A DNA stretch of 61,689 bases from a virus. Its lineage: Duplodnaviria; Caudoviricetes. A program made the translations under genes and the position numbers. The notes beneath the pieces were generated by a model, which was not told the DNA's origin, made no database searches, and saw only the letters and a list, made by a program, of their open reading frames with translations. Location of the stretch: positions 1-61,689 of the IMG/VR virus record IMGVR_UViG_3300011113_000660; one strand, 5' to 3'. Every line of letters begins with the position of its first letter. Positions within the stretch are counted from its first letter, which is position 1. Positions 1-38,951 of the stretch are shown here, in pieces.

Positions 1-2
1 AT

Positions 3-659
3 GCCATACATCATCGAAGCAGTTTAGCAGCCTTACAAAAGCAGTTAGAGGACAAACAGGCCGAAACAGATCCCTACGGTGAACAGATAGAAGACATGCA
101 AGGTCAGGCTTTGCAGGTAGTAAGCTATGACACGCTGAACGAACTTACCAGATTGCAAGAACATCAAGACTTTTTGCTCAAACTCTTGACCAGCAAGGAT
201 TCGTTTATACGCAAGAAGATCATTGAACAAAATCTGAGTTATTTGAATGCTAGACTCACACACTACTTGGATCGTATTGGCCTGCCCCACACAGTGGTAT
301 TCCAGAATGATCTCACAGTCAGCATCGAAGAGTTGGGTCGTGAACTGGACTTTGACAATTTGAGTCGTGGTGAGCGCAACAGATTGATCCTTAGCATGAG
401 CTGGGCCTTCCGTGATGTGTTTGAAAGTCTGTATCAACCCATCAATGTGCTGTTCATCGACGAAATGATCGATTCGGGTCTAGACACACAGGGCGTGGAG
501 AACGCCTTGGCCTTGCTCAAGCATATGAGTCGCGAACGTCACAAATCTATTTGGTTAGTCAGCCACAGAGATGAGTTGGCCGGGCGTGTGGAAAACATAC
601 TGCGGGTAGTCAAAGAAGGTGGCTTTACAAGTTATAACACAGACGTAGAGATTGCATGA
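3..659 (+). CDS. 46: Recombination endonuclease ATPase subunit (T4 gp46 / SbcC-Rad50-like), C-terminal part; gene starts before the window
   Basis: Frame is open from base 3. ABC signature LSRGE, Walker B/D-loop LFIDEMIDSGLD and H-loop LVSH. Confidence 0.9.
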   Translation, partial: AIHHRSSLAALQKQLEDKQAETDPYGEQIEDMQGQALQVVSYDTLNELTRLQEHQDFLLKLLTSKDSFIRKKIIEQNLSYLNARLTHYLDRIGLPHTVVFQNDLTVSIEELGRELDFDNLSRGERNRLILSMSWAFRDVFESLYQPINVLFIDEMIDSGLDTQGVENALALLKHMSRERHKSIWLVSHRDELAGRVENILRVVKEGGFTSYNTDVEIA

Positions 660-1261
660 AAATTTTATTAACTGGAAGCAGCAGTGGTGTTGGACAGGCG
701 TTGTATCAGCAGTTATGCGTTAATCACGACGTTACTGCACCGACCCGCCAACAACTAGATCTACTATCCTCTAGTCAAATAATAAATTTTGTCAATCAAG
801 GTTACGATGTGTTGATCAATTGTGCTGGCACCGGCGTTGGCGGTAAAATTGATTTTGTAAATCACAAAACAAACGATGTAAAAGATATATTACAAACAAA
901 TTTAATCGCTCCAGTATTACTATCACAGGCTGTGCTTAAACACAACTCGCAGGCAAAAATAGTAAACATTACAAGCACTAATAATTTAAGATATTGGCCA
1001 AATGATCTTGCATATAGTCTTAGCAAAAAAGCTGTTGAAGAGTTTGGAAAAATGCTAATGATTGAATATCCAACCATAGATTACTTAGAAATAAGACTGG
1101 GTCTTACAAAAACAAATTTTAATCAAAATAGATTTAAAAATGAACCTGATAGATATACTGAATTATATCAAGACAATTATCTAACTTCAGATAGTGTCGC
1201 TGATAAAATCTGCAAAGTATTGTTTGACGATACTGTAAAATTTATTGAGATATCACCGTGA
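656..1261 (+). CDS. Short-chain dehydrogenase/reductase (SDR)
   Basis: TGxxxGxG (LTGSSSGVG), LINCAG and catalytic YxxxK (YSLSK). AT-rich; ATGA overlap with gene 46. Confidence 0.9.
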   Translation: MKILLTGSSSGVGQALYQQLCVNHDVTAPTRQQLDLLSSSQIINFVNQGYDVLINCAGTGVGGKIDFVNHKTNDVKDILQTNLIAPVLLSQAVLKHNSQAKIVNITSTNNLRYWPNDLAYSLSKKAVEEFGKMLMIEYPTIDYLEIRLGLTKTNFNQNRFKNEPDRYTELYQDNYLTSDSVADKICKVLFDDTVKFIEISP

Positions 1262-2349
1262 ACTGGCAATTATATCACTGGCACTTTGAAGTTAGCGGAA
1301 AATGCACCTTAAAATGTCCTAGGTGCCCTCGCAACGACACTGCCCCGGTGCCGTGGATTAATAAAGAATTAACTTTAGATTTTTTTAAAAAAACACTAAC
1401 ACCAGACTTGTTAAAAACACAGGTTAAAAGAATAACCATGTGTGGAGATGTAGGCGATCCGATCTATGCCAGTGAATACTTAGATATCATTGAGTATATT
1501 AAGTCGCACAATCCTAAAATTCACGTCTATACAATTACCAATGGCAGTTATCGTAAACCCGAATGGTGGCAGAGATTTGCCCAGATCAGCAACAAATACG
1601 ATACTGTAAATTTCAGTGTCGACGGGTACGATGGTGCTAGTAATAACTTGTATCGCATTGGTAGCAACTGGGAAAGCATAATGACCGGTATGCGTATCAT
1701 GTGCCAAGAGAGTCCAGCGTTTGTTTACTGGGCTACTATTGTTTTTGCTTTCAATCAGGACTACTTAGATCAAATTGAACAACAAGCACGTGATATTGGA
1801 TGCGATGGATTACAGTTAACTTACAGCACCAAGTTTGGTAGTAAGTATGGCGAAGCCTATGGTGGTGCCACAGATCCAATGGAGCCTAGACCAGAATTTA
1901 TTAGTAAGACCCACAGATACGAAAGATATTTCCGTAATATCAGCGGACGAGAACAACACAATCAAGACTATCTTGAACACAACTTACAACGATACCGAGC
2001 AGTTAAACAACAACACAATAGGTTCATTACACCTATGTGCAGTGTTGGTAACCGCGGATTATATGTTAGTGCAGATGGTGTGTTACACCCGTGCAGTTGG
2101 GTTAGTTTTCCGTACGTATCAATGAGCACCGGGCGTAAAACAATACACTTTAAAAATAGTTTTCATCAGGTACATAGAGAGAAGTTAAATTTAAACACTC
2201 GCAGTTTAGACGAAGTGTTAAATGATCCAATTTGGAATTTGCTGTCTGAGTCATTTGACAATCCAGAAAAAGCCTGGGTCGAATGCGAACAAAAATGTAA
2301 TTGTAATATAGTGGATGAAGAATATGCTGTTGGGTGGCTTACAAATTAA
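1258..2349 (+). CDS. Radical SAM protein with C-terminal Cys-rich (SPASM/twitch-like) domain
   Basis: CxxxCxxC (CTLKCPRC), GDP, TNGS and FSVDG motifs. C-terminal C..G.L.PC and CEQKC. Confidence 0.9.
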   Translation: MNWQLYHWHFEVSGKCTLKCPRCPRNDTAPVPWINKELTLDFFKKTLTPDLLKTQVKRITMCGDVGDPIYASEYLDIIEYIKSHNPKIHVYTITNGSYRKPEWWQRFAQISNKYDTVNFSVDGYDGASNNLYRIGSNWESIMTGMRIMCQESPAFVYWATIVFAFNQDYLDQIEQQARDIGCDGLQLTYSTKFGSKYGEAYGGATDPMEPRPEFISKTHRYERYFRNISGREQHNQDYLEHNLQRYRAVKQQHNRFITPMCSVGNRGLYVSADGVLHPCSWVSFPYVSMSTGRKTIHFKNSFHQVHREKLNLNTRSLDEVLNDPIWNLLSESFDNPEKAWVECEQKCNCNIVDEEYAVGWLTN

Positions 2350-2383
2350 TGGGTATCAAGACAAATATGATAAACAATAGTCC

Positions 2384-2815
2384 ATGTCATGGCTATTCGA
2401 AAGCAAAACCGTTGAAATTTTACCCGAAGACTGCGTGGGCTTTGTTTACGTGATCACAAATAAACTGACCGGCAGAAAGTATATTGGAAAAAAATTAGCA
2501 AAATTCAGCAAGACAACATATAAGACAGTAAAACTCAAGAACGGCAACAAGAAGCGCAAGAAAATACGTGGCAAAATCGAATCAGACTGGCAGACCTACT
2601 ACGGCAGCAACGAACAACTCAACAAAGATGTAGCACAGTTAGGCAACGAAAACTTCTCTCGTGAAATCTTATACTACTGTAGGTCCAAGGCCGAATGTAG
2701 TTACATAGAAGCTAGAGAACAATTTAACCATAGAGTTCTGGAGTCGGATGACTGGTACAACGGACACATTCAAGTGCGTGTACATGGCAGTCATATAAAA
2801 AATAGATTTAAGTAA
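2384..2815 (+). CDS. Small Seg-type GIY-YIG nuclease domain protein with no C-terminal DNA-binding domain
   Basis: GFVY...KYIG, YYGS, NFSREIL, conserved E (YIEARE) and YN. Lys-rich insertion after YIG. Confidence 0.8.
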   Translation: MSWLFESKTVEILPEDCVGFVYVITNKLTGRKYIGKKLAKFSKTTYKTVKLKNGNKKRKKIRGKIESDWQTYYGSNEQLNKDVAQLGNENFSREILYYCRSKAECSYIEAREQFNHRVLESDDWYNGHIQVRVHGSHIKNRFK

Positions 2816-2818
2816 GAG

Positions 2819-3424
2819 ATGAAAAAAATTTTAATTTGTGGGGATAGTTTTGCTGTTGATTACAAGAATTTGACAAGCAACAACCCAGGCTGGTCTAGTT
2901 TATTATCCAACAATTTTTTGGTAACTAATCTGTCACAGGCTGGGGCAAGCGAATATAGAATTCTTAAACAAATAAAAAATGAAAATATTGATTTGTATGA
3001 CGCTATTATAATTAGCCATACTAGCCCAAATCGGTTGTATGTCAATGAACATCCTATTCATAAAAATAATGCCATTCATCAAAATAGTGATTTACTTTAT
3101 AATGATGTGGTATATCACGCCAACTTGGATCCTGACAATAAGATATTAATGTCAGCTAAAAATTATTTTGAAAATATTTTTGATATGACATATCATGAAG
3201 ATCTATTTTTTTTAATTGCTGATCAAATTAATCTTCTTGCAAATGATAAACCATGCCTGAATCTATTTACATTGTATGACAAAAATTGTAACAAGTTTCA
3301 ACATTATTTAAATTTAAAAAAACAATTTAAAATTGTACCGGGACAAACCAATCATTATACAAGCACAACAAATTTGCAAATTTCCAATTTAATCAAAAAA
3401 TGGATTGATCTTGTTACCAATTAA
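2819..3424 (+). CDS. SGNH/GDSL-hydrolase-like protein
   Basis: N-terminal ICGDSF, block II NLSQAGAS, C-terminal NH. AT-rich. Confidence 0.6.
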   Translation: MKKILICGDSFAVDYKNLTSNNPGWSSLLSNNFLVTNLSQAGASEYRILKQIKNENIDLYDAIIISHTSPNRLYVNEHPIHKNNAIHQNSDLLYNDVVYHANLDPDNKILMSAKNYFENIFDMTYHEDLFFLIADQINLLANDKPCLNLFTLYDKNCNKFQHYLNLKKQFKIVPGQTNHYTSTTNLQISNLIKKWIDLVTN

Positions 3425-4430
3425 AATAACCATTTTTGTCGGGGATGTTTCAGAAACGACATCAAGTGTTGCTTTGGCGTTGGACAAGGAAGCAGTGTTG
3501 CTCGATCAAAGTAACTACCTGCAATTCTTAAATAAAGAATTGTTAAATCATACTTTTTATACCAGCTTAGGCGATTTACCAAAAGATATAGCTATTATGT
3601 ATCGTATATTAGACAAAGCCGATGACATTATTTACTGCCCGACTAATTCCTGGAGCGATGATAAAGCTCTCGACATTACAAATGTCACTAGTTCCATACA
3701 AGGACTCACCGAATTTATTTTGTTTAATATTTCTCAAATAAAACATAATGTATATAATCTAGATTTAACAAAATATACTAACAGCGTATACACTATTCTT
3801 GCTGATTCTCGTAAAACAGATAGTCAACAACTATGGATTTCTGGTTGTAGTGTAACACACGGCGTAGGAGTAGATGCGTCTCAACGGTATGGGCAACTTC
3901 TTGCAAATTTATTAGAGTTGCCGGTGTCGTTTTTAACCGCTGGAGGATCATCTATTCCGTGGGCAATAGATCAAATAATTAGGTCAGATGTATGTCCTGG
4001 TGATATTGTAGTTTTAGGACTAATCAGTGAGTTTAGATTTCCATACTGGGCTGGTAAAAATGGTGTTTGGCACATAGCTTCTTCACATCGATTGCACGCT
4101 AAAAAATTACCCTTTACAAATTTATCACACAGCATGTTAGACAGACTAATTACAGATGAGAATTGCTTTTATCAATCTGTAATTAGTATTAACCAACTTA
4201 TAAATTTTTGCAGAAAACTTAATCTAAAATTATTAATTTTAGGATTACTCTCCTCACACAAATTAGCATTACAACTAAGCAACATATCACAATTCAAAAA
4301 CTATGTAAACTTTGAATCACCAAATTCTTACGTTGATCTAGGAACCGACGATAAGCATCCTGGGCCACAACAACACAAACTCTACGCAGACTTTTGTCAA
4401 TCAGCACTAAAACAACTTCATTACATTTAA
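3405..4430 (+). CDS. Protein with C-terminal SGNH/GDSL-like domain
   Basis: GCSVTHGVG, AGGSS and DDKHPG (DxxHP). AT-rich; exact start codon uncertain. Confidence 0.6.
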   Translation: MILLPIKITIFVGDVSETTSSVALALDKEAVLLDQSNYLQFLNKELLNHTFYTSLGDLPKDIAIMYRILDKADDIIYCPTNSWSDDKALDITNVTSSIQGLTEFILFNISQIKHNVYNLDLTKYTNSVYTILADSRKTDSQQLWISGCSVTHGVGVDASQRYGQLLANLLELPVSFLTAGGSSIPWAIDQIIRSDVCPGDIVVLGLISEFRFPYWAGKNGVWHIASSHRLHAKKLPFTNLSHSMLDRLITDENCFYQSVISINQLINFCRKLNLKLLILGLLSSHKLALQLSNISQFKNYVNFESPNSYVDLGTDDKHPGPQQHKLYADFCQSALKQLHYI

Positions 4431-4858
4431 AACTAGATAGGCAACTTTACTGACTCTGCGCCGGGTGTTTGATCCGGCCCCATCGAAGAACGGTGCAATA
4501 CCCGGTCTGGAAAACTTTGGGCGTCAAAGGCAATTGCTAACTTAAGGCAACAAATGGTTTGAGCTCTGTGAAAAAGACACAACTCATGCTCATAGGACTT
4601 GGTTCTTCTCGGGTCACTAGGGTTCCGTTGACATGTGAAGCTTGAGTAGGGGGTACCGGTCAACCGCCTCCGTGTAGGAAACTACAATCTCATTGGAATG
4701 AAGTGACTGCGATACTCGGATAATGCAGAACTTTTCACCCGGCAACGGGTGAATTGTGACCACTTAATCTGGATAATACGGAAAAACATTTTCTTTATAG
4801 CAACAGATAAAGATGCGTGAGCAAAGCGAAACGCATAGACTTCGTAATACGAAGTCTC
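4431..4858 (+). ncRNA. Putative large structured non-coding RNA of unknown class
   Basis: About 430 bp between convergent genes, more GC-rich than the flanks, with at least 9 helices found by eye. Two are capped by GNRA tetraloops on the + strand (TGTAG-GAAA-CTACA 4673-4686; TTCACCCG-GCAA-CGGGTGAA 4734-4753). G-U pairs read correctly on the + strand. Confidence 0.6.
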
Positions 4859-4860
4859 TT
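4837..4860. terminator. Hairpin at the junction of convergent transcription units (possible terminator or RNA 3' end)
   Basis: AGACTTCGT-AAT-ACGAAGTCT, directly abutting the stop of the minus-strand radical SAM gene; weak T tail. Confidence 0.4.
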
Positions 4861-6427
4861 ATACCATCAACGCACTGTCTGCTTTGGAAGTTTGAATTGG
4901 AATGATTCTTTTAACCAAAGGTTTTACAACGTCAGTGAAAGCTGCTGCTCGAGTTCGGTTGACTTCAAGATACAACTCAATTTCGCCATTGAGATTGTAG
5001 CTCATGTTTATTGCATCTCGTGTGGCACGTATCCAGCGTAGATACCTTTCTTTGACTGTGAGTTCGGGATTAGAATCACATACCCAGTCAGATACGTTGT
5101 TGGATCCTTCAAACCAACGAGTACCAAGCTCTTGTGACATTGCCTCAACCGGAGTATGATCTTGTATAGCCATGGTAAATCTTACATCGTAAATCAACAC
5201 TGTGTCGTTGATAACATAGCGTTGCCAGCGTTTTAACAATTCCAGTGACTCCTGGAAATCTTGTTCTGTTTCGGTCACATACCCTACAATCATTAATAAT
5301 GAATTTTGAATACCGTATTTTTCGCACATGGCCAAATGATAATCAACATCTTCATTGGTAAATTTTTTACGCATGTGGATTCTTACTTTTTCACTGCCGC
5401 TCTCTAATCCCACTGAGATCGTTTTTAGTCCTACCTTGCTCATAAGTTGAAACATTCTTTCTTTGTGTGCTGTTTTGGGTCTCAGAATAAAATTTCCGTT
5501 CAGTGAAAGTTTAGATAGGCCTGGATGATTGTTAATATGGATGTCAAGCACTTCTAACATTTCCATAAACTGACTCAGGGATCCATTGAGCAAACTATCA
5601 CTAAAGATAAATTCGGTTACCCCAGCATCTAGATAGCACTGTAATATTTCATCAGCTATGTGTTTTCCTGTCCGGAATCGATATTTTTTCCAGTGAGCGG
5701 CCACATCACAAAATGTACAATCTTGTACACACCCCCGGCTACCGGTTATGGTTATTACAGGGGTTCCTTTTGGTCCTAAATAGTCATTGAGATTATCTTT
5801 GAGTTTTTTATAATCTACAAAAGGCAAACTGTCTAAATCGTTAATTTGTTCTTGCTTGTGTTCAACATTATTTTTGCTGTTCAATCCAGCAATGTTTCTA
5901 TGTCCAGTGATGAATTTTTCAAAAATTATGTCTCCTTCTCCAAGCACATAATAGTCCAATAGATCCTGATCGACTAGGTATCTTCCATAAGAATCAGAAT
6001 TCAATCCTTTGAGTTGGTAGGTTGTGTTGACTCCAGATCCCCCGGCAATAATTGGCAAGTTGGTGTTGTGTTTTTTACAATATCGTAAAAATAGTTCGCA
6101 CCATTGATGTTGGATGTAACTGAATACCGAGATAGCAATAGCGTCAGCACCACTTTGTTTGATTCGATCAGTTATGGCAAGAAAAAAATTGTCAATTTCT
6201 TGTTGTTTTTCGGCAATAGCCACATCCAGATTGCTCCAACTATGTTTGTAAAAATATTCCCACTGCTGGTCTCCAAAATAATACCGTAACTCCATGCTGA
6301 GATCCATTAGATCATAATCGACCTGATTACGATTACACACTCCGGCAAGAAATCCTAAACTAGAAGGCAACCGAGAACTGGGCAGTTGCGCACCGTTAAC
6401 AAGCATGATTTTTTTAAACTTTGACAT
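4859..6427 (-). CDS. B12-binding-domain radical SAM protein (class B methyltransferase-like architecture)
   Basis: N-terminal cobalamin-binding-like region (SLGFLAG, IIAGGSG, LGEGD), SRGCVQDCTFC, GLESGS and IVGYVTET. Confidence 0.88.
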   Translation of the reverse strand: MSKFKKIMLVNGAQLPSSRLPSSLGFLAGVCNRNQVDYDLMDLSMELRYYFGDQQWEYFYKHSWSNLDVAIAEKQQEIDNFFLAITDRIKQSGADAIAISVFSYIQHQWCELFLRYCKKHNTNLPIIAGGSGVNTTYQLKGLNSDSYGRYLVDQDLLDYYVLGEGDIIFEKFITGHRNIAGLNSKNNVEHKQEQINDLDSLPFVDYKKLKDNLNDYLGPKGTPVITITGSRGCVQDCTFCDVAAHWKKYRFRTGKHIADEILQCYLDAGVTEFIFSDSLLNGSLSQFMEMLEVLDIHINNHPGLSKLSLNGNFILRPKTAHKERMFQLMSKVGLKTISVGLESGSEKVRIHMRKKFTNEDVDYHLAMCEKYGIQNSLLMIVGYVTETEQDFQESLELLKRWQRYVINDTVLIYDVRFTMAIQDHTPVEAMSQELGTRWFEGSNNVSDWVCDSNPELTVKERYLRWIRATRDAINMSYNLNGEIELYLEVNRTRAAAFTDVVKPLVKRIIPIQTSKADSALMV

Positions 6428-6935
6428 TGGTTAATTCTTTTTCGAATGCATCGAGCTTATCTAAGAACCGCTGACGTGCCTCTGGCAACGGTATGAATAA
6501 GTTTAAAACGGGTTGACTCTTATTTATTTTTTCTTGAACTGCCCAGTCTATCACAGGTACGCCCATTGGCATCTTGAATGTACCATTTGGACCCCAAATC
6601 AGTGACTGCGGATGCTCGGTACCATCGAAACAAAAAATTCCAGAGAACTTGAAATAGTTTGGGAGTTTAACATCTTCTATATAGATATCGTCTAAAGTCA
6701 CAATCTGATCTTGTACTATGACATTGTTTTCAACTATGCAGTTGTTGTCAGTTTTTCCATAGCGTTCAATACTAAGTGTATATAATCCGGATTCTATTTT
6801 TTCCAGCGGCAGACTAATTTGTTCTTGAGGCCTGGTAAATTCAAAGTCAACTAACGTTGTGTTGTTCAGGGTAAATTTTAACTTTGGCCAACCGTTGCAT
6901 TCGGTAGCTGAGAAATGGAAAATTAATTGATTCAT
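6414..6935 (-). CDS. Hypothetical protein (beta-rich), coupled to the radical SAM gene
   Basis: 173-aa ORF overlapping both neighbours; AT-rich. Confidence 0.7.
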   Translation of the reverse strand: MNQLIFHFSATECNGWPKLKFTLNNTTLVDFEFTRPQEQISLPLEKIESGLYTLSIERYGKTDNNCIVENNVIVQDQIVTLDDIYIEDVKLPNYFKFSGIFCFDGTEHPQSLIWGPNGTFKMPMGVPVIDWAVQEKINKSQPVLNLFIPLPEARQRFLDKLDAFEKELTNVKV

Positions 6936-7270
6936 AGATTTTTATCAGGCCAATCACGAAACAGTGCATGCTGTATGTCACCTGCGACGAACTGATTGAA
7001 ACTTCGATGTTTGGTTTCTAATTCACCTTCGAGTGGTGCAACTCTTCGGAATGCTTCATCCATTTGTGCCATGTCGCGGAATTCCATGATTATCATCCAC
7101 TCGGGCATGTCTGCTATGCTACGGAATCCCATTTTGCATCTAGTGATTCTGTATGATTCCATTTTGCCTTCTGAAATCAAATGATCAAAGAAACCCTTCA
7201 TGCCGTTGACCCAATCAATGTCACTGATGTCGCCTTCTTTGTTTGCCCAAATTGTGTATAAGTCTGCCAT
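6932..7270 (-). CDS. Small dimeric alpha-beta-barrel-like protein (DUF6614-like)
   Basis: ITRxKMGF...EW.I..EF..MAQMDEAF..VA...H pattern; family recalled from memory, not searched. Confidence 0.5.
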   Translation of the reverse strand: MADLYTIWANKEGDISDIDWVNGMKGFFDHLISEGKMESYRITRCKMGFRSIADMPEWMIIMEFRDMAQMDEAFRRVAPLEGELETKHRSFNQFVAGDIQHALFRDWPDKNL

Positions 7271-7704
7271 TATTGTAGTGTCCCTAAAATTTCAAAGCCT
7301 TCAAGGCCTTGTTTGTACAAGTGTGCTTGATCTAGATATAGAAACTTGTAACCTCTTTCTCTGTAGATAGCACATTCTGTTTTCAAACTTTCTATTCCCA
7401 GTTGAGTCCTTGGATTATGATATGTCCATGCAAACTGACTGGCCAGCACATTTTCTGTATCGTAGCGCCGCATCAAACTAAAAGCCACTAGCTCATCGTT
7501 TTCTCTATAGCCAATCACATCGGTCATGGGATCCGTAAACTGGCTGTCAAACAAGGGCATGACCGACGCAAAATGTTTGTAGATACAGTAGGTCCTGTAG
7601 ATGTCCTTCAATTGAGCAATGTTGGGTTCGTGTAGATATTCCCAGGCCACGGTGGCCCGATAGGTAGTTTTAGATAAGTCTATGCGAGCAAATTGATAAG
7701 TCAT
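7270..7704 (-). CDS. GNAT-fold protein resembling the C-terminal domain of arginyl/leucyl-tRNA-protein transferases (ATE1/Bpt)
   Basis: LVAFS...LASQFAWTY..P..QLGIESL..EC...R..GYKFLYL...YK parallels the ATE_C pattern LxAv...Y.fYDP...LG..s.l.EI...r..g..ylYLG...YK. Confidence 0.6.
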   Translation of the reverse strand: MTYQFARIDLSKTTYRATVAWEYLHEPNIAQLKDIYRTYCIYKHFASVMPLFDSQFTDPMTDVIGYRENDELVAFSLMRRYDTENVLASQFAWTYHNPRTQLGIESLKTECAIYRERGYKFLYLDQAHLYKQGLEGFEILGTLQ

Positions 7705-8204
7705 GTCCTGGGATCTTGTCTATGAGCAAACAAGGTCTGTAAATAGTCCTCGGGCCAGGTCGCATAAAACCCTTTGTCTGCCATTTGCTGTGCTTTGGAA
7801 TTCAAGTCAGTCAAATTCTGTACCAAGACCAAGGCATAGGTGCCTTGATTCATAGTCACTCCGTTGACTATTTCTGGATCCGCCGGATGATCTTCCAAGG
7901 CAATCATGTCTCGGGGCACAAGATGATTGGTGTTGGCAAATTCTATTTCGTCATGGAATTTGTCGTAGGGATGGAACTTGAGGTCGTACGCAAAAATCGT
8001 CACACTTTTTGCCAAGGTGCTGTAGCTTACAGCAATGAGATCTTCTAAAGGATTGCGACCAAGTCTGACTTCAAAGTCACGATCCAAGCGTGCTTTGCGA
8101 GCGTACGGACACGGTGCCCAACCACCCAGAGCCGGATGCGGAACTTCCACAAACGTGGCCATCCAGCGTTCGATGTCGTAGGTAACAGTTTCTAAATTTA
8201 ACAT
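7701..8204 (-). CDS. DUF1415-like protein
   Basis: W...FV......CPYA and DHP motifs typical of DUF1415 (W...v...nlCPFA ... FHP). Confidence 0.5.
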   Translation of the reverse strand: MLNLETVTYDIERWMATFVEVPHPALGGWAPCPYARKARLDRDFEVRLGRNPLEDLIAVSYSTLAKSVTIFAYDLKFHPYDKFHDEIEFANTNHLVPRDMIALEDHPADPEIVNGVTMNQGTYALVLVQNLTDLNSKAQQMADKGFYATWPEDYLQTLFAHRQDPRT

Positions 8205-8207
8205 TTT

Positions 8208-8396
8208 TTAAAAGAAAGGCAGACCGCTCTTTTTAGTGGTCTCGAGATTTTCTTTGATTATGACATTGATCAATTTTCTTTCGCTGACGCCCAGGGTCAT
8301 GGCCTGCTCATAGGTCAGACCACCACGCATGTACCAGGCCATTTTCAGCGCCTCCTGTCGGATGTCATTGCTTTCTTTTTCCATGCTGTCCAGCAT
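8208..8396 (-). CDS. Small baseplate hub assembly protein (T4 gp51-like)
   Basis: Directly follows the gp26-like gene; short helical protein with W.MRG...Y...M.L...ER. Confidence 0.5.
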   Translation of the reverse strand: MLDSMEKESNDIRQEALKMAWYMRGGLTYEQAMTLGVSERKLINVIIKENLETTKKSGLPFF

Positions 8397-8422
8397 TTTG
8401 GAAATTTGGTCAGAGTCCAGGA

Positions 8423-9262
8423 CTAGGAGGCGGCTGCGAAAAAACTTGTCATGTCCAAGGTCATGGGTTGTTCATAGGCATTCTGACATTCTGGACAAGA
8501 GATCTTCAAGGGCTGTAGTTCGGCCTGGGTCTTGAGATTCACAATGTGATCTCGCACACTGTTGAAAATCTTTCTATCACAGTTGTTCATGAGCTCGCGT
8601 ATAAATTCGGGTTCGGTGACCAAGGCCTGTGGTGTTTTGACTGCGGCTATGCTTTGGCACAGGGCCTCTATGGTCACCTGTGTGAGACGGCGCAAGGCAT
8701 CTCCAATGGCCGTGATCTTGTCAGGTTCGGGTACTTCGCTGTCGGGCAACATGCTCATGAGCTTTTGCTGATCATACTGTATTTGGTTGTTTTCGTTGAG
8801 ATTACGATAGCTCATGGGCCGGAAGTAGAATTCCAGATCGCCGTGGCGCACAGACTGATCATAGTTGGGTGAACGTATGCCATCCAGCACTGATCTAAGG
8901 TCCACGGTGAAATCGGATTCTTTGCGGCAGGCCGGGCAGGTGGTGCCCAGTTCCATTTCGTGTCCGTAGCTGGCCAAGCGTATGCCCACCAAGATGGTGT
9001 CCACATCCATGGCTGGCACTGCCCAGGCATCACGTATGTTGGGCACACAGCTCTGTATCACATTGACCATGGCCGAACCATTGAACAAGGCATCCGGTGT
9101 GCGATAGGTTATTTCGTCCACTGCGGTCATGGGCAACACTGGCAGTTCGCCATTGGCTGGCATGTCTAAGGCGCCAGCCGGATAGTGTTTGCCGGCACTG
9201 GGCAGGCGTATGTATATGGCCGGCTGACGGAAATACTGTTGTAAAGGGTTGTTTTGTGGCAT
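8423..9262 (-). CDS. 26: Baseplate hub subunit (T4 gp26-like)
   Basis: IRLPS, PMTA.DE, D.D.IL..IR.ASYG, CPAC and C-terminal CPEC...FF. Confidence 0.75.
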   Translation of the reverse strand: MPQNNPLQQYFRQPAIYIRLPSAGKHYPAGALDMPANGELPVLPMTAVDEITYRTPDALFNGSAMVNVIQSCVPNIRDAWAVPAMDVDTILVGIRLASYGHEMELGTTCPACRKESDFTVDLRSVLDGIRSPNYDQSVRHGDLEFYFRPMSYRNLNENNQIQYDQQKLMSMLPDSEVPEPDKITAIGDALRRLTQVTIEALCQSIAAVKTPQALVTEPEFIRELMNNCDRKIFNSVRDHIVNLKTQAELQPLKISCPECQNAYEQPMTLDMTSFFAAAS

Positions 9263-9274
9263 AATTATCCTCGG

Positions 9275-9280
9275 TAAATA
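9275..9280 (+). promoter_or_regulatory. T4-type late promoter core TAAATA
   Basis: 5 nt upstream of ATG 9286; no Shine-Dalgarno. Confidence 0.65.
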
Positions 9281-9285
9281 TAGTT

Positions 9286-11376
9286 ATGGCTGATTTTATG
9301 AACGAACAAGAAATTCAAGAGGCAATGAAACGCCTGGCGGAAAACTTCCAACAGGGCTACATTACTGCAGCAGAATACAACAAAGGCATGAAAGATGCCA
9401 CGGTAGGCATACGCGGTTACACAGCCAGTCTGCAGGCCAGCATGGCCCAGCTGGGCACCAGTATGAAGCAACTGGGCGCTGGCATTTACAAGAACACACA
9501 AGGTGTAGGGCAGTTTGGCGGAGCGATTGAATCTGGTGCTGACGCTGTCAGCGCCTATACCAAGAAATTTGGTCCTGCCGGTCAAGCAGTGGGCCTGTTT
9601 ACCCAGGCCTTGGCCAAATACGTAGCAGCATCGCTCAAGATGAGCGATCAGCTGTTTGACAGTTATACAAAAATCAGCAGAGCCGGTGTTGTAGGCGCCG
9701 GGGCCATGAGCGAAGTCTATGACAGTCTTCGTGATTTTGGTTATACCATGGAAGGGCTGGAAAATCTTGGAAACTTGCTGGGACGCAACAGCAAAAACTT
9801 TGGCCTGTTCTTCCAAAGTGCTTTGCAAGGATCCCGAGCTTTTGGCCAGGTGGCCAGCCAGATTCAAAACAGTGACCTACGGCAACAGTTTTTCCAACTG
9901 GGCATGAGCGTCGATGATATCAACGATGGCATAGCCGGATACGTAGCACAACAAGGAAAACTGGGACAGATCCAAGGCAAGAGTGTGGATCAACTGGCCA
10001 AAGGGTCTGAGGCCTATATCAAAGAACTAGACATACTGACCAAGCTCACTGGCATGACACGCCAAGAACAAGAAGACGCTAGAGAACAGGCTCTGCAGAT
10101 TGAAGCTTTTTATGCTGGCCTAGCCGATCTTGGTGAAGCTCAACAAGAAGAAGCCTTAAAGGCCTTTACAATGATGTATGCCAAGGGCGGACCCAAAGCC
10201 GCAGCTGAAATGGCATCACAGTTCAATGGAGTGATCACTGCAGCCTCAGACATGTTCCTGACCACAGGCGGTGCCAGCATGCAGGCCTTTAGCAAAGAAT
10301 TTTTTGCTAGAGGTGGCACAGCAGCACAATCTGCACAGATGATCAAAGACAGTATCAGTCCAGACATGGCAAAGATTACCCAGGACTTGAACAAGATGGG
10401 TGTTTCGTTGGGCCTGAACTTTAGAACCATTCAAAATCTTACCAAAGACGGCATGGTGCCTTTAGAAAAACTAGCCAAAGAACTGACTGATGAACAGTTC
10501 AAGCAACTGACTGGCATGGACAAGGCCACAGCAGCACAGGCTGGTGCACGAGACAGTCAAATCAAGACCGCACAGAACTTGCAAGATTTTGTGCGAATGG
10601 GAGTTGGCCCTGCAACCGCTGCTTTAGAAATCTTTACCCAGGCCGTAGAATATCTAACTTCCTTCATACCAGGGTTTGAAAGCAAAAAAACTGTTGCAAC
10701 CAGAGCCGAAGCAGTCCGCACAACCACTGCTTCGGCTTCGGGCACAGACACCTCGGGTTCCATGGCCGGAATTGATGTTCCTGGTGGTGCAGGCGGAGTC
10801 GGAGCTCAACTAACACCAGATGAAATGGGACTCAAAGGACTGCCTCTTAAGAAAGGTGCCACTTCGGGCGGTGAACACACAGAAGCCCTGGCTGGCTTAG
10901 CACAACGCATACACAAGGAGCTAGGAGGAGAGCTTGTGTACTTTAGCGGATTTAACGACGGCTATGCTCGAGATAAAAACAGTAAACACCCATCCGGCCA
11001 GGCATTAGATTTCACTATCAAAGATGCGGCACAGTCTGCTAGAATAGCCGAACTGGTCAGGCGCATGCCAGGAGTCGGCTATGTTCAAGACGAGTATCTA
11101 AACCCTAGCTCAAGAAGCAGCGGCAATCATATACACGCAGAAGTGTCGGCTGCCAATGGGGCTATTTTGTCTGGCCCTGCCAGTGGCTATCAGCCCAATC
11201 TGACCATGCACGGCACCGAAGCTGTGGTGCCCTTGAACACCGCTGCACAACAGGCCGCAGCCGGCATGACAGACAGTGGAACCATGGCCCTGCAACTGGG
11301 CAAGCTGGAAGAAATGGTCAGCTTGATGAAGAGTCAGCTCAGTGTCAGCACAAGAATAATGCAGTACAGTAGCTAG
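9286..11376 (+). CDS. Tape-measure/baseplate-hub-like protein with C-terminal LAS (M15-like) peptidoglycan peptidase domain
   Basis: Long Ala/Gln-rich helical region, then SKHPSGQALD (H-x6-D) and NHIH (HxH), and a HGTEAVVPL motif. Confidence 0.65.
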   Translation: MADFMNEQEIQEAMKRLAENFQQGYITAAEYNKGMKDATVGIRGYTASLQASMAQLGTSMKQLGAGIYKNTQGVGQFGGAIESGADAVSAYTKKFGPAGQAVGLFTQALAKYVAASLKMSDQLFDSYTKISRAGVVGAGAMSEVYDSLRDFGYTMEGLENLGNLLGRNSKNFGLFFQSALQGSRAFGQVASQIQNSDLRQQFFQLGMSVDDINDGIAGYVAQQGKLGQIQGKSVDQLAKGSEAYIKELDILTKLTGMTRQEQEDAREQALQIEAFYAGLADLGEAQQEEALKAFTMMYAKGGPKAAAEMASQFNGVITAASDMFLTTGGASMQAFSKEFFARGGTAAQSAQMIKDSISPDMAKITQDLNKMGVSLGLNFRTIQNLTKDGMVPLEKLAKELTDEQFKQLTGMDKATAAQAGARDSQIKTAQNLQDFVRMGVGPATAALEIFTQAVEYLTSFIPGFESKKTVATRAEAVRTTTASASGTDTSGSMAGIDVPGGAGGVGAQLTPDEMGLKGLPLKKGATSGGEHTEALAGLAQRIHKELGGELVYFSGFNDGYARDKNSKHPSGQALDFTIKDAAQSARIAELVRRMPGVGYVQDEYLNPSSRSSGNHIHAEVSAANGAILSGPASGYQPNLTMHGTEAVVPLNTAAQQAAAGMTDSGTMALQLGKLEEMVSLMKSQLSVSTRIMQYSS

Positions 11377-11383
11377 GTCGCGG

Positions 11384-11389
11384 TAAATA
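11384..11389 (+). promoter_or_regulatory. Late promoter core TAAATA
   Basis: 7 nt upstream of the portal ATG. Confidence 0.65.
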
Positions 11390-11396
11390 TACTACC

Positions 11397-13232
11397 ATGG
11401 CAGAAAATCAAAATACCCGTAAACCCGGGTGGCGCAAATATTTCAAGGTCGCCAACACCGGCGGTCAACTGAGCCCCATAAGCGGGCAAAATCAGTTTGG
11501 ATTGCCCAACTATCCTAGACAAACCGGAGCCGGCTACGAAAACGGTGGCACCGGCAATGACTTTGCGTTTCGCAACTATGCGTCACGCTTGCCAGAAGTG
11601 TACTCGGGCCATCCCAACCGTATTGAACGCTACAATCAGTATGAAAACATGGACTGCGATTCAGAAGTCAATGCTTGCCTGGACATCATCGCTGAGTTCA
11701 GCACACAGATGAATCAGGACAATGAAACTCCATTTGACATTGCCTTTACCGACAAGCCCACAGACAACGAAGTAGAAATCATCAAAAAGCAGTTGCAACA
11801 GTGGTGCAAGCTCAACAAGATGGACCAGCGCATATTCAAGCTGTTCCGCAATACTATCAAGTACGGTGACCAGGTGTTTGTGCGTGACCCAGAAACTTTT
11901 GAAATGTACTGGGTGGACATGGTCAAAGTGGCACGTGTGATCGTCAACGAAAGCGAAGGCAAGCGTCCCGAGCAGTACATCATCAGAGACATCAACCCCA
12001 ACTTCCAGAACATGAGCGTGGCACAAAAGACCACACAGGACTACTATGTGAGCCGTGCCACTGGCAGCATTGGACAAAACAACTACACAGCACCCAACGG
12101 TGGTGGCTATGGCGGTGCCGGCGGTTCGGGTCAGAGCCGATTCACCCAGGCCATGAACGAAACCTGCATCGATGCCCGACACGTGGTGCATCTCAGCTTG
12201 AATGAAGGACTCGATTACTTCTGGCCGTTTGGACAAAGCATACTGGAAAACATTTTCAAAGTTTACAAACAAAAAGAATTGCTGGAAGACTCAGTCCTGA
12301 TCTATCGTGTGCAACGTGCTCCTGAGCGCCGAGTGTTCAAGATTGACGTGGGCGACATGCCCAGCCACATGGCCATGCAGTTTGTGGAACGTGTCAAAAA
12401 CGAAATGCACCAACGGCGCATACCCACCATCACCGGTGGTGGTGCCAACATGATGGATGCCAGCTACAACCCGCTCAGTATCAACGAAGACTTTTTCTTC
12501 CCGTTCAACGGATCTAGTGGCCGCGGCAGCAGTGTGGATACCCTGGCTGGTGGTACCAATCTGGGCGAGATTGACGATTTAAAATATTTCAACAACAAAA
12601 TGGCCCGCGGCTTGCGTGTGCCCTCCAGCTATTTGCCCACCGGGCCCGATGACAGCAACTTGGCCATGAACGATGGACGTGTGGGCACAGCACTCATACA
12701 AGAATACAGATTCAACCAGTACTGCATGCGCCTGCAACGTGCAATCATGCAAAAGTTGGATGACGAATTCAAGATGTTCCTGCGTTGGAGAGGTTTCAAC
12801 ATTGATGCAGGACTTTTCAGCATCGCATTCTGTGAACCACAGAATTTTGCCTCATATCGCCAAAGCGAGCTGGACACCACACGCATAGCTGCCTTTACAC
12901 AGCTGGAGCAGATGCCCTACATGAGCAAGCGATTCATGATGAAACGCTACCTGGGACTAACCGAAGAAGAGATCGTGGAAAACGAACAACTCTGGCGTGA
13001 AGAGCGAGACGAACCCGAGTTAACCACCACACAAGGACAGGATCTGCGCAGCATCGGCGTCACACCTGCAGGTTTAGAAAGTGACATAGCCATGGGCCAA
13101 GAACTGGCCGGAGCCGAAATGGGCGCCGAAGCCGGTGCGCCGCAGGCTGGAGCAGTGCCCACATCCACAGCACCTGCCGGAGCCGGAGCTCCTGCTGCTG
13201 GTGGAGCACCAGCTGGCGTGCCAGGTCTTTAA
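11397..13232 (+). CDS. 20: Portal protein (T4 gp20)
   Basis: LEDSVLIYRVQRAPERRVFKIDVG, EDFFFP, GSSVDTLAGG, LGEIDDLKYF and LRVPSS motifs. Confidence 0.97.
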   Translation: MAENQNTRKPGWRKYFKVANTGGQLSPISGQNQFGLPNYPRQTGAGYENGGTGNDFAFRNYASRLPEVYSGHPNRIERYNQYENMDCDSEVNACLDIIAEFSTQMNQDNETPFDIAFTDKPTDNEVEIIKKQLQQWCKLNKMDQRIFKLFRNTIKYGDQVFVRDPETFEMYWVDMVKVARVIVNESEGKRPEQYIIRDINPNFQNMSVAQKTTQDYYVSRATGSIGQNNYTAPNGGGYGGAGGSGQSRFTQAMNETCIDARHVVHLSLNEGLDYFWPFGQSILENIFKVYKQKELLEDSVLIYRVQRAPERRVFKIDVGDMPSHMAMQFVERVKNEMHQRRIPTITGGGANMMDASYNPLSINEDFFFPFNGSSGRGSSVDTLAGGTNLGEIDDLKYFNNKMARGLRVPSSYLPTGPDDSNLAMNDGRVGTALIQEYRFNQYCMRLQRAIMQKLDDEFKMFLRWRGFNIDAGLFSIAFCEPQNFASYRQSELDTTRIAAFTQLEQMPYMSKRFMMKRYLGLTEEEIVENEQLWREERDEPELTTTQGQDLRSIGVTPAGLESDIAMGQELAGAEMGAEAGAPQAGAVPTSTAPAGAGAPAAGGAPAGVPGL

Positions 13233-38943: not shown

Positions 38944-38951
38944 TATAAATA
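38944..38951 (+). promoter_or_regulatory. Full T4 late promoter consensus TATAAATA
   Basis: Exact consensus upstream of the sheath gene. Confidence 0.8.

Follow-up and report, generated by a model that had tools for sequence, protein, structure and literature searches.

A conserved three-gene phage cassette encoding a candidate aminoacyl-tRNA-dependent transferase and a candidate thiolate-haem oxygenase

The window studied here, the whole of IMGVR_UViG_3300011113_000660 at 61,689 bases, comes from an uncultured giant T4-like lake phage and has an estimated completeness of ~18%, i.e. four fifths of the genome are missing. Positions 4859–8204 carry five minus-strand open reading frames (ORFs) of 522, 173, 112, 144 and 167 amino acids. 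The functional unit of this region is a three-gene cassette, not the five-gene run. Its first gene, p167 (7701–8204), encodes a DUF6875/DUF1415-like protein that is a candidate Cys-ligated haem oxygenase; the second, p144 (7270–7704), encodes a single-domain GNAT of the ATE_C clade, named for the C-terminal domain of ATE1 and Bpt, and a candidate aminoacyl-tRNA-dependent transferase; the third (6932–7270) encodes a 112-residue protein of the Pfam family DUF6614. We propose, at a probability of roughly 0.45, that the trio may constitute a tRNA-dependent pathway for arginine or guanidine tailoring, by analogy with the AglC/AglA pair of argolaphos biosynthesis.

Conservation and arrangement of the cassette

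The cassette was followed through a scan of IMG/VR with p144, which yielded 305 relatives, of which the best 80 (72–91% identity) were examined, with neighbouring genes located by tblastn. Since these 80 loci were picked by their likeness to p144, they stand for one phage group. Within it, all 75 loci with enough flanking sequence have p167 upstream of p144, directly adjoining in 71, and 74 of 75 have the DUF6614 gene downstream, adjoining in 66. The complete trio is present in 69 of the 70 loci with room on both sides. The sequence-only reading of this DNA had joined the genes of the run into one modification system and named their co-occurrence in other genomes as a check; this holds for the trio and fails for the remaining two genes, as p173 (173 amino acids, 6414–6935) was found in none of the 80 loci by tblastn and the radical SAM gene (522 amino acids, 4859–6427) has distant look-alikes in 13. 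The cassette is abundant: p144 forms 2800 clusters at 90% identity in public metagenomes and is found on at least 305 IMG/VR contigs.

Median identities to the window proteins are 59% for the baseplate hub protein, 65% for p62 (a 62-residue ORF present in 72 of the 80 loci by tblastn), 60% for p167, 79% for p144 and 88% for the DUF6614 protein, making p144 and the DUF6614 protein better conserved than the hub protein. Among same-length relatives (47 for p144, 18 for the DUF6614 protein and 20 for p167), codon position 3 differs two to four times more than positions 1 and 2, indicating that the trio is under strong purifying selection. The genes are tightly packed in the window. The p167/p144 junction is a 4-nucleotide (nt) ATGA overlap, p144/DUF6614 a 1-nt TAATG overlap, DUF6614/p173 a 4-nt ATGA overlap and p173/radical SAM a 14-nt overlap, in exact agreement, limits included, with the earlier description of five overlapping or abutting minus-strand genes behind the baseplate-hub genes.

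Over residues 3–110 the DUF6614 protein scores 75.1 bits with its family model (PF20319, cut-off 25; E 5.7e-21), and all its atlas clusters are viral. Searches of 400 other sampled Bacteroidota genomes and of 14 control genomes did not find the family, nor did any of 50,697 deposited phage records match it. A DUF6614 profile compared with the PDB gave just matches at E ~1, to coproheme decarboxylase. Joint complex prediction of p167, the DUF6614 protein and p144 scored 0.00, a value that speaks neither for nor against binding.

A fourth gene, coding for an amidinotransferase, is a facultative member of the cassette. It lies within the cassette in 13 of the 80 loci as insertions of 1.13–1.16 kb that encode 377–384 amino acids, between p167 and p144 in four loci and between p144 and DUF6614 in eight, plus L072; the same gene is found after DUF6614 or nearby in L026, L029, L038, L002, L134, L144 and L161. 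Compared with the PDB, a profile of the inserted proteins matched amidinotransferases only (AGAT 3.3e-17, HsvA 1.4e-15, SxtG 1e-11 and StrB1 1e-10), with an alignment that takes in the C-terminal Cys motif and the His-x-Asp motif. Homing-endonuclease genes were considered as an explanation for these ~1.14-kb insertions and ruled out, as they encode amidinotransferase homologues. The gene is not in the window, which holds only the ~18% of the genome given above.

Deeper searches used two distant p144 relatives as queries and hidden Markov models built from our own alignments. The p167-p144 pair recurs in distant lineages and in other contexts (L134, L144, L145, L161, L163, L165 and L166), and relatives of window genes are found on contigs up to 352 kb. 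On the 352-kb contig L161 the order is p167-p144-DUF6614-amidinotransferase, preceded by a dCMP deaminase gene and without a nearby hub gene; L145 reads hub-p62-p167-p144-DUF6614; L144 reads ribonucleotide reductase small chain-p167-p144-amidinotransferase-MazG; and L163, L165 and L166 carry the p167-p144 pair. L134, a contig of a Bacteroidetes metagenome-assembled genome (MAG), has p167-like and p144-like genes, then an amidinotransferase gene and a row of 2-oxoglutarate (2OG)-oxygenase-like genes, which looks like a longer tailoring row. Four ORFs lie past the amidinotransferase gene in this contig (851–4921); the 2OG-Fe(II) oxygenase match is clear for one (E 3.7e-19) and weak for two.

The transferase candidate p144 and the oxygenase candidate p167

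A phmmer search with p144 against 1.8 billion representatives returned 116 matches, comprising ~144-residue forms and longer forms of 225–268 residues. Ten longer relatives were tested, of which nine score above the ATE_C cut-off; among 31 long forms, 30 give an ATE_C match with E≤0.01. A profile built from a 58-sequence alignment of the p144 family (A2) and compared with PDB sequences found ATE1 alone, at E 9.8e-8 and 2.6e-6, with nothing else below E 1. The match spans the strand-loop-helix core of the GNAT domain, which p144 therefore shares with the C-terminal domain of the ATE1/Bpt enzymes. The kinship with that domain proposed from sequence alone was thus upheld, and the motif stretch quoted for it lies at residues 101–131. 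With 144 residues and neither the ATE_N part nor a second lobe, p144 is far shorter than the ATE1 chains of 503–518 residues. Bpt proteins are ~235–250 residues long. In the A2 alignment, p144 begins where the N-terminal region of the long forms ends. The idea that p144 and p167 are the two halves of a split Bpt, with p167 supplying the N-terminal one, was rejected, since hhalign of its profile (A3) against the long-form alignment (A4) gave a probability of 1.7%.

In the alignment of A2 with ATE1, the segment behind strand 4 has the loop pattern of ATE1 rather than the coenzyme A (CoA)-binding motif: G103 is the sole invariant Gly, and its spacing is unlike that of Q/R-x-x-G-x-G/A, the pyrophosphate-binding loop of CoA-using GNATs. 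None of the acetyltransferase Pfam families matches p144 at E≤1.

The AlphaFold2 (AF2) model of p144 is a single GNAT domain with a predicted local distance difference test (pLDDT) score of 93.2. Its top Foldseek matches are users of aminoacyl-tRNA: the C-domains of MprF/aaPGS (7.5e-6), Kluyveromyces lactis ATE1 (1.1e-5) and Sba18/Sbb17 (1.7e-5), the last being aminoacyl-tRNA-dependent peptide synthases. Tandem acetyltransferases and FemX come next in the list. Exhaustive structure comparison with VIA-align recovered the GNAT fold at Z 11–14.5 over 119–141 aligned residues, with VipF (Z 14.5), FemX (14.3), MprF (14.3) and MAB_4324 (13.6) among the matches. Acetyl-CoA GNATs, which include VipF and MAB_4324, score almost like FemX and MprF, and the fold alone does not decide the donor of p144. 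A BFVD search with the model gave one uncharacterised close homologue and otherwise weak GNAT matches, and neither p144 nor its long form has a relative among the 50,697 deposited phage records. Together, these comparisons support a kinship of p144 with the C-terminal GNAT domain of ATE1/Bpt, and they do not mark it as a recognisable acetyl-CoA acetyltransferase. The sequence-only reading had singled out an ordinary acetyltransferase as the identity that would undo it; sequence comparison answers in the negative, while fold comparison by itself is undecided. From the profile match and the model we infer tRNA use, and p144 is a candidate aminoacyl-tRNA-dependent transferase.

The relationships of p167 are more distant. 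Language-model features place it near clusters in which 17–18% of members are DUF1415 and 11–23% are DUF6875, and in the wider p167 family weak DUF6875 matches occur in 34 of 42 members (E≤0.1, best 1e-5) and weak DUF1415 matches in 7 of 42. One of 46 homologues of a Bdellovibrionia relative of p167 carries PF21780, the Pfam model of DUF6875. The AF2 model (pLDDT 90.6) is a small alpha/beta protein with four strands flanked by helices. In an exhaustive structure comparison with 48,161 representatives, AglA was the sole chain at Z≥5. The five AglA entries scored Z 6.9–7.2 with 146–148 of the 167 residues aligned at 8–10% identity, and the next chain scored 4.3–4.4.

AglA is described as a YqcI/YcgG thiolate-haem enzyme with Cys44 as axial ligand that N-hydroxylates the guanidine of AMPn-Arg (PMC12866846), and DUF6875 as cytochrome P422, a family with Cys-ligated haem that hydroxylates tryptophan and is characterised by an RxGxVCP haem motif, three Trp-binding motifs and an axial Cys58 (bioRxiv 10.64898/2025.12.11.692455). 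The predicted fold of p167 is likewise a four-stranded sandwich, and a Cys-Pro follows its first helix. The Cys of this pair, Cys32 (PCP), and a DHP motif are conserved without exception across 42 diverse members of the p167 family, and Cys32 lies in the segment that aligns with the opening part of the DUF6875 model, making it a candidate axial haem ligand. From this residue and the predicted fold we infer haem binding, and p167 is a candidate for a separate, mainly viral and metagenomic branch of the thiolate-haem sandwich-fold family.

Sequence comparisons with the PDB were uninformative for p167, as two family profiles (A3 and A7) and the protein P0385 gave chance-level matches only. One match, to a fimbrial fusion, was rejected as spurious: its E of 1.9e-5 is summed over repeats, and each stretch has E ~1.5. 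A search for DUF6875 members for profile comparison found none in 201 genomes of one phylum, where controls were likewise silent.

A proposed tailoring pathway and competing explanations

In the pathway that we tentatively favour, p144 would take an aminoacyl group, most plausibly arginyl, from a charged host tRNA and form an amide bond to the amine of a small molecule, e.g. a polyamine or guanidino-amine. As a Cys-ligated haem oxygenase with the 'sandwich' fold of AglA and cytochrome P422, p167 would hydroxylate that amino-acid or guanidino group. The amidinotransferase, where present, may draw on arginine to install a guanidino group on this scaffold, and the DUF6614 protein would act as an accessory protein. 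Arginine or guanidine chemistry on an amine scaffold is suggested by three independent hints, namely the ATE-type transferase, the AglA-like fold of p167 and the arginine-using amidinotransferase; the partners of p144 in the cassette also suggest a non-protein acceptor, in distinction to ATE1/Bpt.

The argolaphos pair of Streptomyces monomycini provides a worked precedent for a tRNA-dependent amide bond followed by thiolate-haem N-hydroxylation. The AMPn-Arg amide is reported to need ArgRS, tRNA and AglC, with which the substrate was prepared, and AglA then N-hydroxylates its guanidine (PMC12866846). The alp cluster, which is related to that of argolaphos, is said to encode GNAT-superfamily aminoacyl-tRNA ligases (PMC8976061). 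Our comparison of p144 with AglC is one of reaction logic, not of sequence, and p167 is shorter than AglA (167 versus ~240 residues), with the low identity and Z ~7 given above. The cassette further differs from argolaphos in that no phosphonate genes are seen here, the setting is a phage and a DUF6614 protein is the partner.

A second comparison is with the hsvABC genes for phevamine A in Pseudomonas syringae, which combine an amidinotransferase with amide-forming amino-acid ligases acting on a polyamine: HsvA, the second-best PDB relative of the cassette amidinotransferase, is described as amidinating spermidine, to which ATP-grasp ligases then attach amino acids (PMC6187163). Those ligases are not tRNA-dependent GNATs, and there is no haem enzyme in that system as described.

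A one-domain enzyme of this kind is feasible. Mom of phage Mu, like p144 phage-encoded and built of a single GNAT domain per chain, is a dimeric GNAT reported to use charged tRNA (PMC13219725). The earlier statement that no phage example had been characterised is accordingly out of date, as Mom acts with Gly-tRNA on DNA (PMC13219725). Both tRNA-dependent GNATs, including Mom, and thiolate-haem sandwich enzymes are already known kinds; literature text searches on the family names and on phage arginyltransferases turned up no account of this cassette. If the proposed pathway is correct, phages would have turned to charged tRNA for non-translational chemistry in two independent cases, Mom being the first; no smaller member of the ATE/Bpt branch than p144 would be known, and p167 would extend the newly recognised non-P450 thiolate-haem oxygenases by a viral branch. 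The cassette offers a directly testable route to a phage-made arginine- or guanidine-type compound or modification.

Several observations weigh against the pathway. The match of p144 itself to ATE_C is sub-threshold (E 0.0099, 16.9 bits versus a cut-off of 25, residues 60–124); many ordinary single-domain GNATs reach Z 11–12 against its model, near the tRNA users; the ATE_N part and second GNAT lobe present in all characterised ATE/Bpt, LFTR, FemX and MprF enzymes are missing from it; and its isoelectric point (pI) of 5.8 is acidic, unexpected for a tRNA binder. Bacterial Bpt enzymes transfer Leu, so arginine as the donated residue is a guess. The match of p167 to DUF6875 (PF21780) is also sub-threshold (E 0.0089, 16.6 bits versus 24.5), Foldseek with its model gave nothing at E≤1e-3, and the Z of ~7 with AglA is modest, a value that, as the tool warns, may reflect a common arrangement. 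Of the P422 motif RxGxVCP, p167 keeps CP only, and it does not retain the Trp-binding motifs. The window showed no redox partner.

Nor do the genes always travel together. One short-form p144 lineage, represented by 15 loci, has no p167, DUF6614 or amidinotransferase neighbours and lies instead beside a gene for a family-B-type DNA polymerase (named from its translation), and at 48 loci the long-form relatives of 225–268 residues likewise lack all three neighbours. p167-like genes are solitary in two Bdellovibrionia genomes without a p144 relative and in cultured marine phages, e.g. HMO-2011 (22–27% identity). As p167-like genes can stand alone, the p167-p144 partnership is not obligatory.

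Among the alternatives, two concern the chemistry of p144. It could be an ordinary acyl-CoA GNAT whose likeness to ATE_C reflects shared GNAT ancestry only, which its size and one-domain build, typical of acetyltransferases, its sub-threshold ATE_C score and the equal rank of acetyl-CoA enzymes in the fold comparison would all allow. We nevertheless regard this as decidedly improbable: acetyltransferase families are silent, ATE1 is the sole significant PDB sequence match of the family profile, the loop has the ATE1 pattern in place of the CoA-binding one, and the full-length relatives pass ATE_C. Alternatively, p144 might add a tRNA-borne amino acid to the N-termini of host or virion proteins, creating N-degrons or decorating the virion late in infection. 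The nearest characterised sequence relatives do act on protein N-termini (ATE1, and the NCBIfam arginyltransferase models, which score 12–37 bits on the long forms against cut-offs of at least 170), and in this phage group the cassette stands directly behind the baseplate-hub genes on the same strand with no gap. However, ATE_N is not matched by p144 or, at E≤0.01, by any of the 31 long forms; the conserved partners, oxygenase-like and amidinotransferase, are typical of small-molecule tailoring; and in L161 and L144 the cassette is away from structural genes, by those for dCMP deaminase or for ribonucleotide reductase and MazG. N-degron tagging, which the sequence-only reading had put forward, is on account of these partners less likely than small-molecule or guanidine tailoring, and protein tagging in general seems to us quite unlikely.

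A different target is suggested by Mom, for which charged tRNA is the acyl donor and DNA adenine the residue modified, on double-stranded DNA and in late expression (PMC13219725). By analogy, p144 might aminoacylate a phage DNA base or nucleotide precursor that p167 and the amidinotransferase would tailor further, shielding the DNA from host nucleases, and other lineages do place the cassette or p144 beside genes for ribonucleotide reductase, MazG, dCMP deaminase or DNA polymerase B. These nucleotide-metabolism neighbourhoods are, however, also common dumping grounds for accessory genes in T4-like phages. No sequence relation between p144 and Mom is detectable (hhalign of A2 against Mu Mom, probability 0.2%), the 144 residues leave no room for the essential helix-turn-helix (HTH)-like insertion of Mom, none is present between the last strands of the model, and the acidity of p144 is a further difference, so that such a role is very doubtful. 

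It is simply unlikely that all five window genes serve one product in this phage, with, e.g., the radical SAM enzyme methylating the product of the trio. The two extra genes are chained to the trio on the same strand by the 4-nt and 14-nt overlaps, and the radical SAM look-alikes of the 13 related loci lie within 6 kb of it; these look-alikes, however, are only 24–42% identical, sit on the opposite strand in 12 of 13 cases and vary in position, p173 was found in none of the 80 loci, and neither gene has a close relative in IMG/VR by a pattern scan that finds close relatives only. Both are also AT-rich, with G+C contents (GC) of 0.375 for p173 and 0.386 for the radical SAM gene versus ~0.50 for the core.

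The cassette would hardly be a counter-defence device with the DUF6614 protein as its key part. ORF71 of phage DruSM1, a predicted DUF6614 protein, is reported to block Druantia type I (bioRxiv 10.1101/2024.04.14.589459), and the DUF6614 protein is the most conserved of the trio and essentially viral; yet the family assignment of ORF71 is only a prediction in a preprint, the deposited phage records hold no match to DUF6614, and such extreme conservation is unusual for arms-race proteins. As a more speculative extension of the tailoring pathway, and one to which we give little credence, giant freshwater T4-like phages and several other uncultured phage lineages might combine charged host tRNA with a miniature thiolate-haem oxygenase, in some cases also with an amidinotransferase, and so place an N-hydroxylated arginyl or guanidino decoration on their own DNA, on a nucleotide precursor or on packaged polyamines, as a late virion hypermodification against host nucleases.

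Neighbouring genes, expression signals and other contexts

The co-directional run that contains the cassette begins with the gene for a T4 gp26-like baseplate hub protein of 279 amino acids (8423–9262, minus strand), assigned by Pfam to T4_baseplate (E 5.1e-15) and by PHROGs to phrog_150, 'baseplate hub' (E 6.2e-16). Between it and the trio lies the conserved p62 (8208–8396, minus strand), which has no family match in Pfam or PHROGs and is separated from p167 by 3 nt. In the window, transcription probably runs on from the baseplate-hub genes into the cassette. The hub gene and a plus-strand gene for a 696-residue protein stand back to back with starts 23 nt apart (9262–9286), and the promoters of both must therefore sit within coding sequence. 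The T4 late-promoter consensus has a single match in the window, at 38944, far from the cassette and not above chance, and the count of sigma-70-like and terminator-like sites at 4300–9500 is at shuffle level. Rfam gave nothing at E≤1 for positions 1–12000, no tRNA genes were found in the window, and a blastn search with 4000–9500 against deposited phages returned no match.

Downstream of the trio, p173 and the radical SAM gene, both on the minus strand, are phage-specific extensions, a local add-on to the trio. The lineage-specific p173 has no match in Pfam, PHROGs or NCBIfam; one weak match was noted in L131 (30% over 97 amino acids). The 522-residue protein belongs to Radical_SAM (E 3.2e-18), has a CxxxCxxC motif in its translation and may be of the class-B-like, B12-binding type: its B12-binding match is below threshold (E 5.4e-4, 20.2 bits versus 32.1), and its best NCBIfam models are all B12-binding radical SAM families, far below their cut-offs (PhpK 91.8 bits versus 600).

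In most relatives, the DUF6614 gene is followed ~400 nt on by a convergent SegE-type GIY-YIG gene, the window counterpart of which is p143 (SegE_GIY-YIG, E 6.9e-33). At this point of convergence the window has gained ~4 kb of AT-rich DNA (GC 0.28–0.39 versus ~0.50 for the core). Two plus-strand ORFs and a gene-free stretch of 428 nt lie in this added DNA beside p173 and the radical SAM gene. The latter two genes resemble this variable island in composition, unlike the core, which fits insertion at a hot spot between convergent operons. The gene-free stretch (4431–4858) lies between the convergent operons; Rfam gave nothing for it at E≤1, and terminator-like sites in it do not exceed chance. 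The AT-rich plus-strand island at 656–4430 (GC 0.28–0.40) has two ORFs without a family, together with genes for a short-chain dehydrogenase (adh_short, E 8.6e-19), a radical SAM/SPASM-like protein (E 6.4e-9) and the SegE-type GIY-YIG protein; the GIY-YIG and radical SAM/SPASM-like genes recur, convergent to the trio, in most related loci.

Outside this group, the lone p167-like protein of the two Bdellovibrionia chromosomes (L135 and L133, both at 4977–5534) has 33–34% identity to p167. The flanking genes look like housekeeping genes by translation, and one resembles glycyl-tRNA synthetase; the presence of a p167-like protein in these chromosomes means that the haem-like family is not confined to phages. 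In L149 (4322–5438), a 229-residue ORF without a Pfam family overlaps p144 upstream and may be a different partner of it, with a family-B-type DNA polymerase gene following. Finally, the 148-kb and 183-kb contigs L130 and L131, both with the order hub-p62-trio-GIY-YIG, are binned in one Haliscomenobacter sp. MAG, which may be a hint to the host or a binning artefact.

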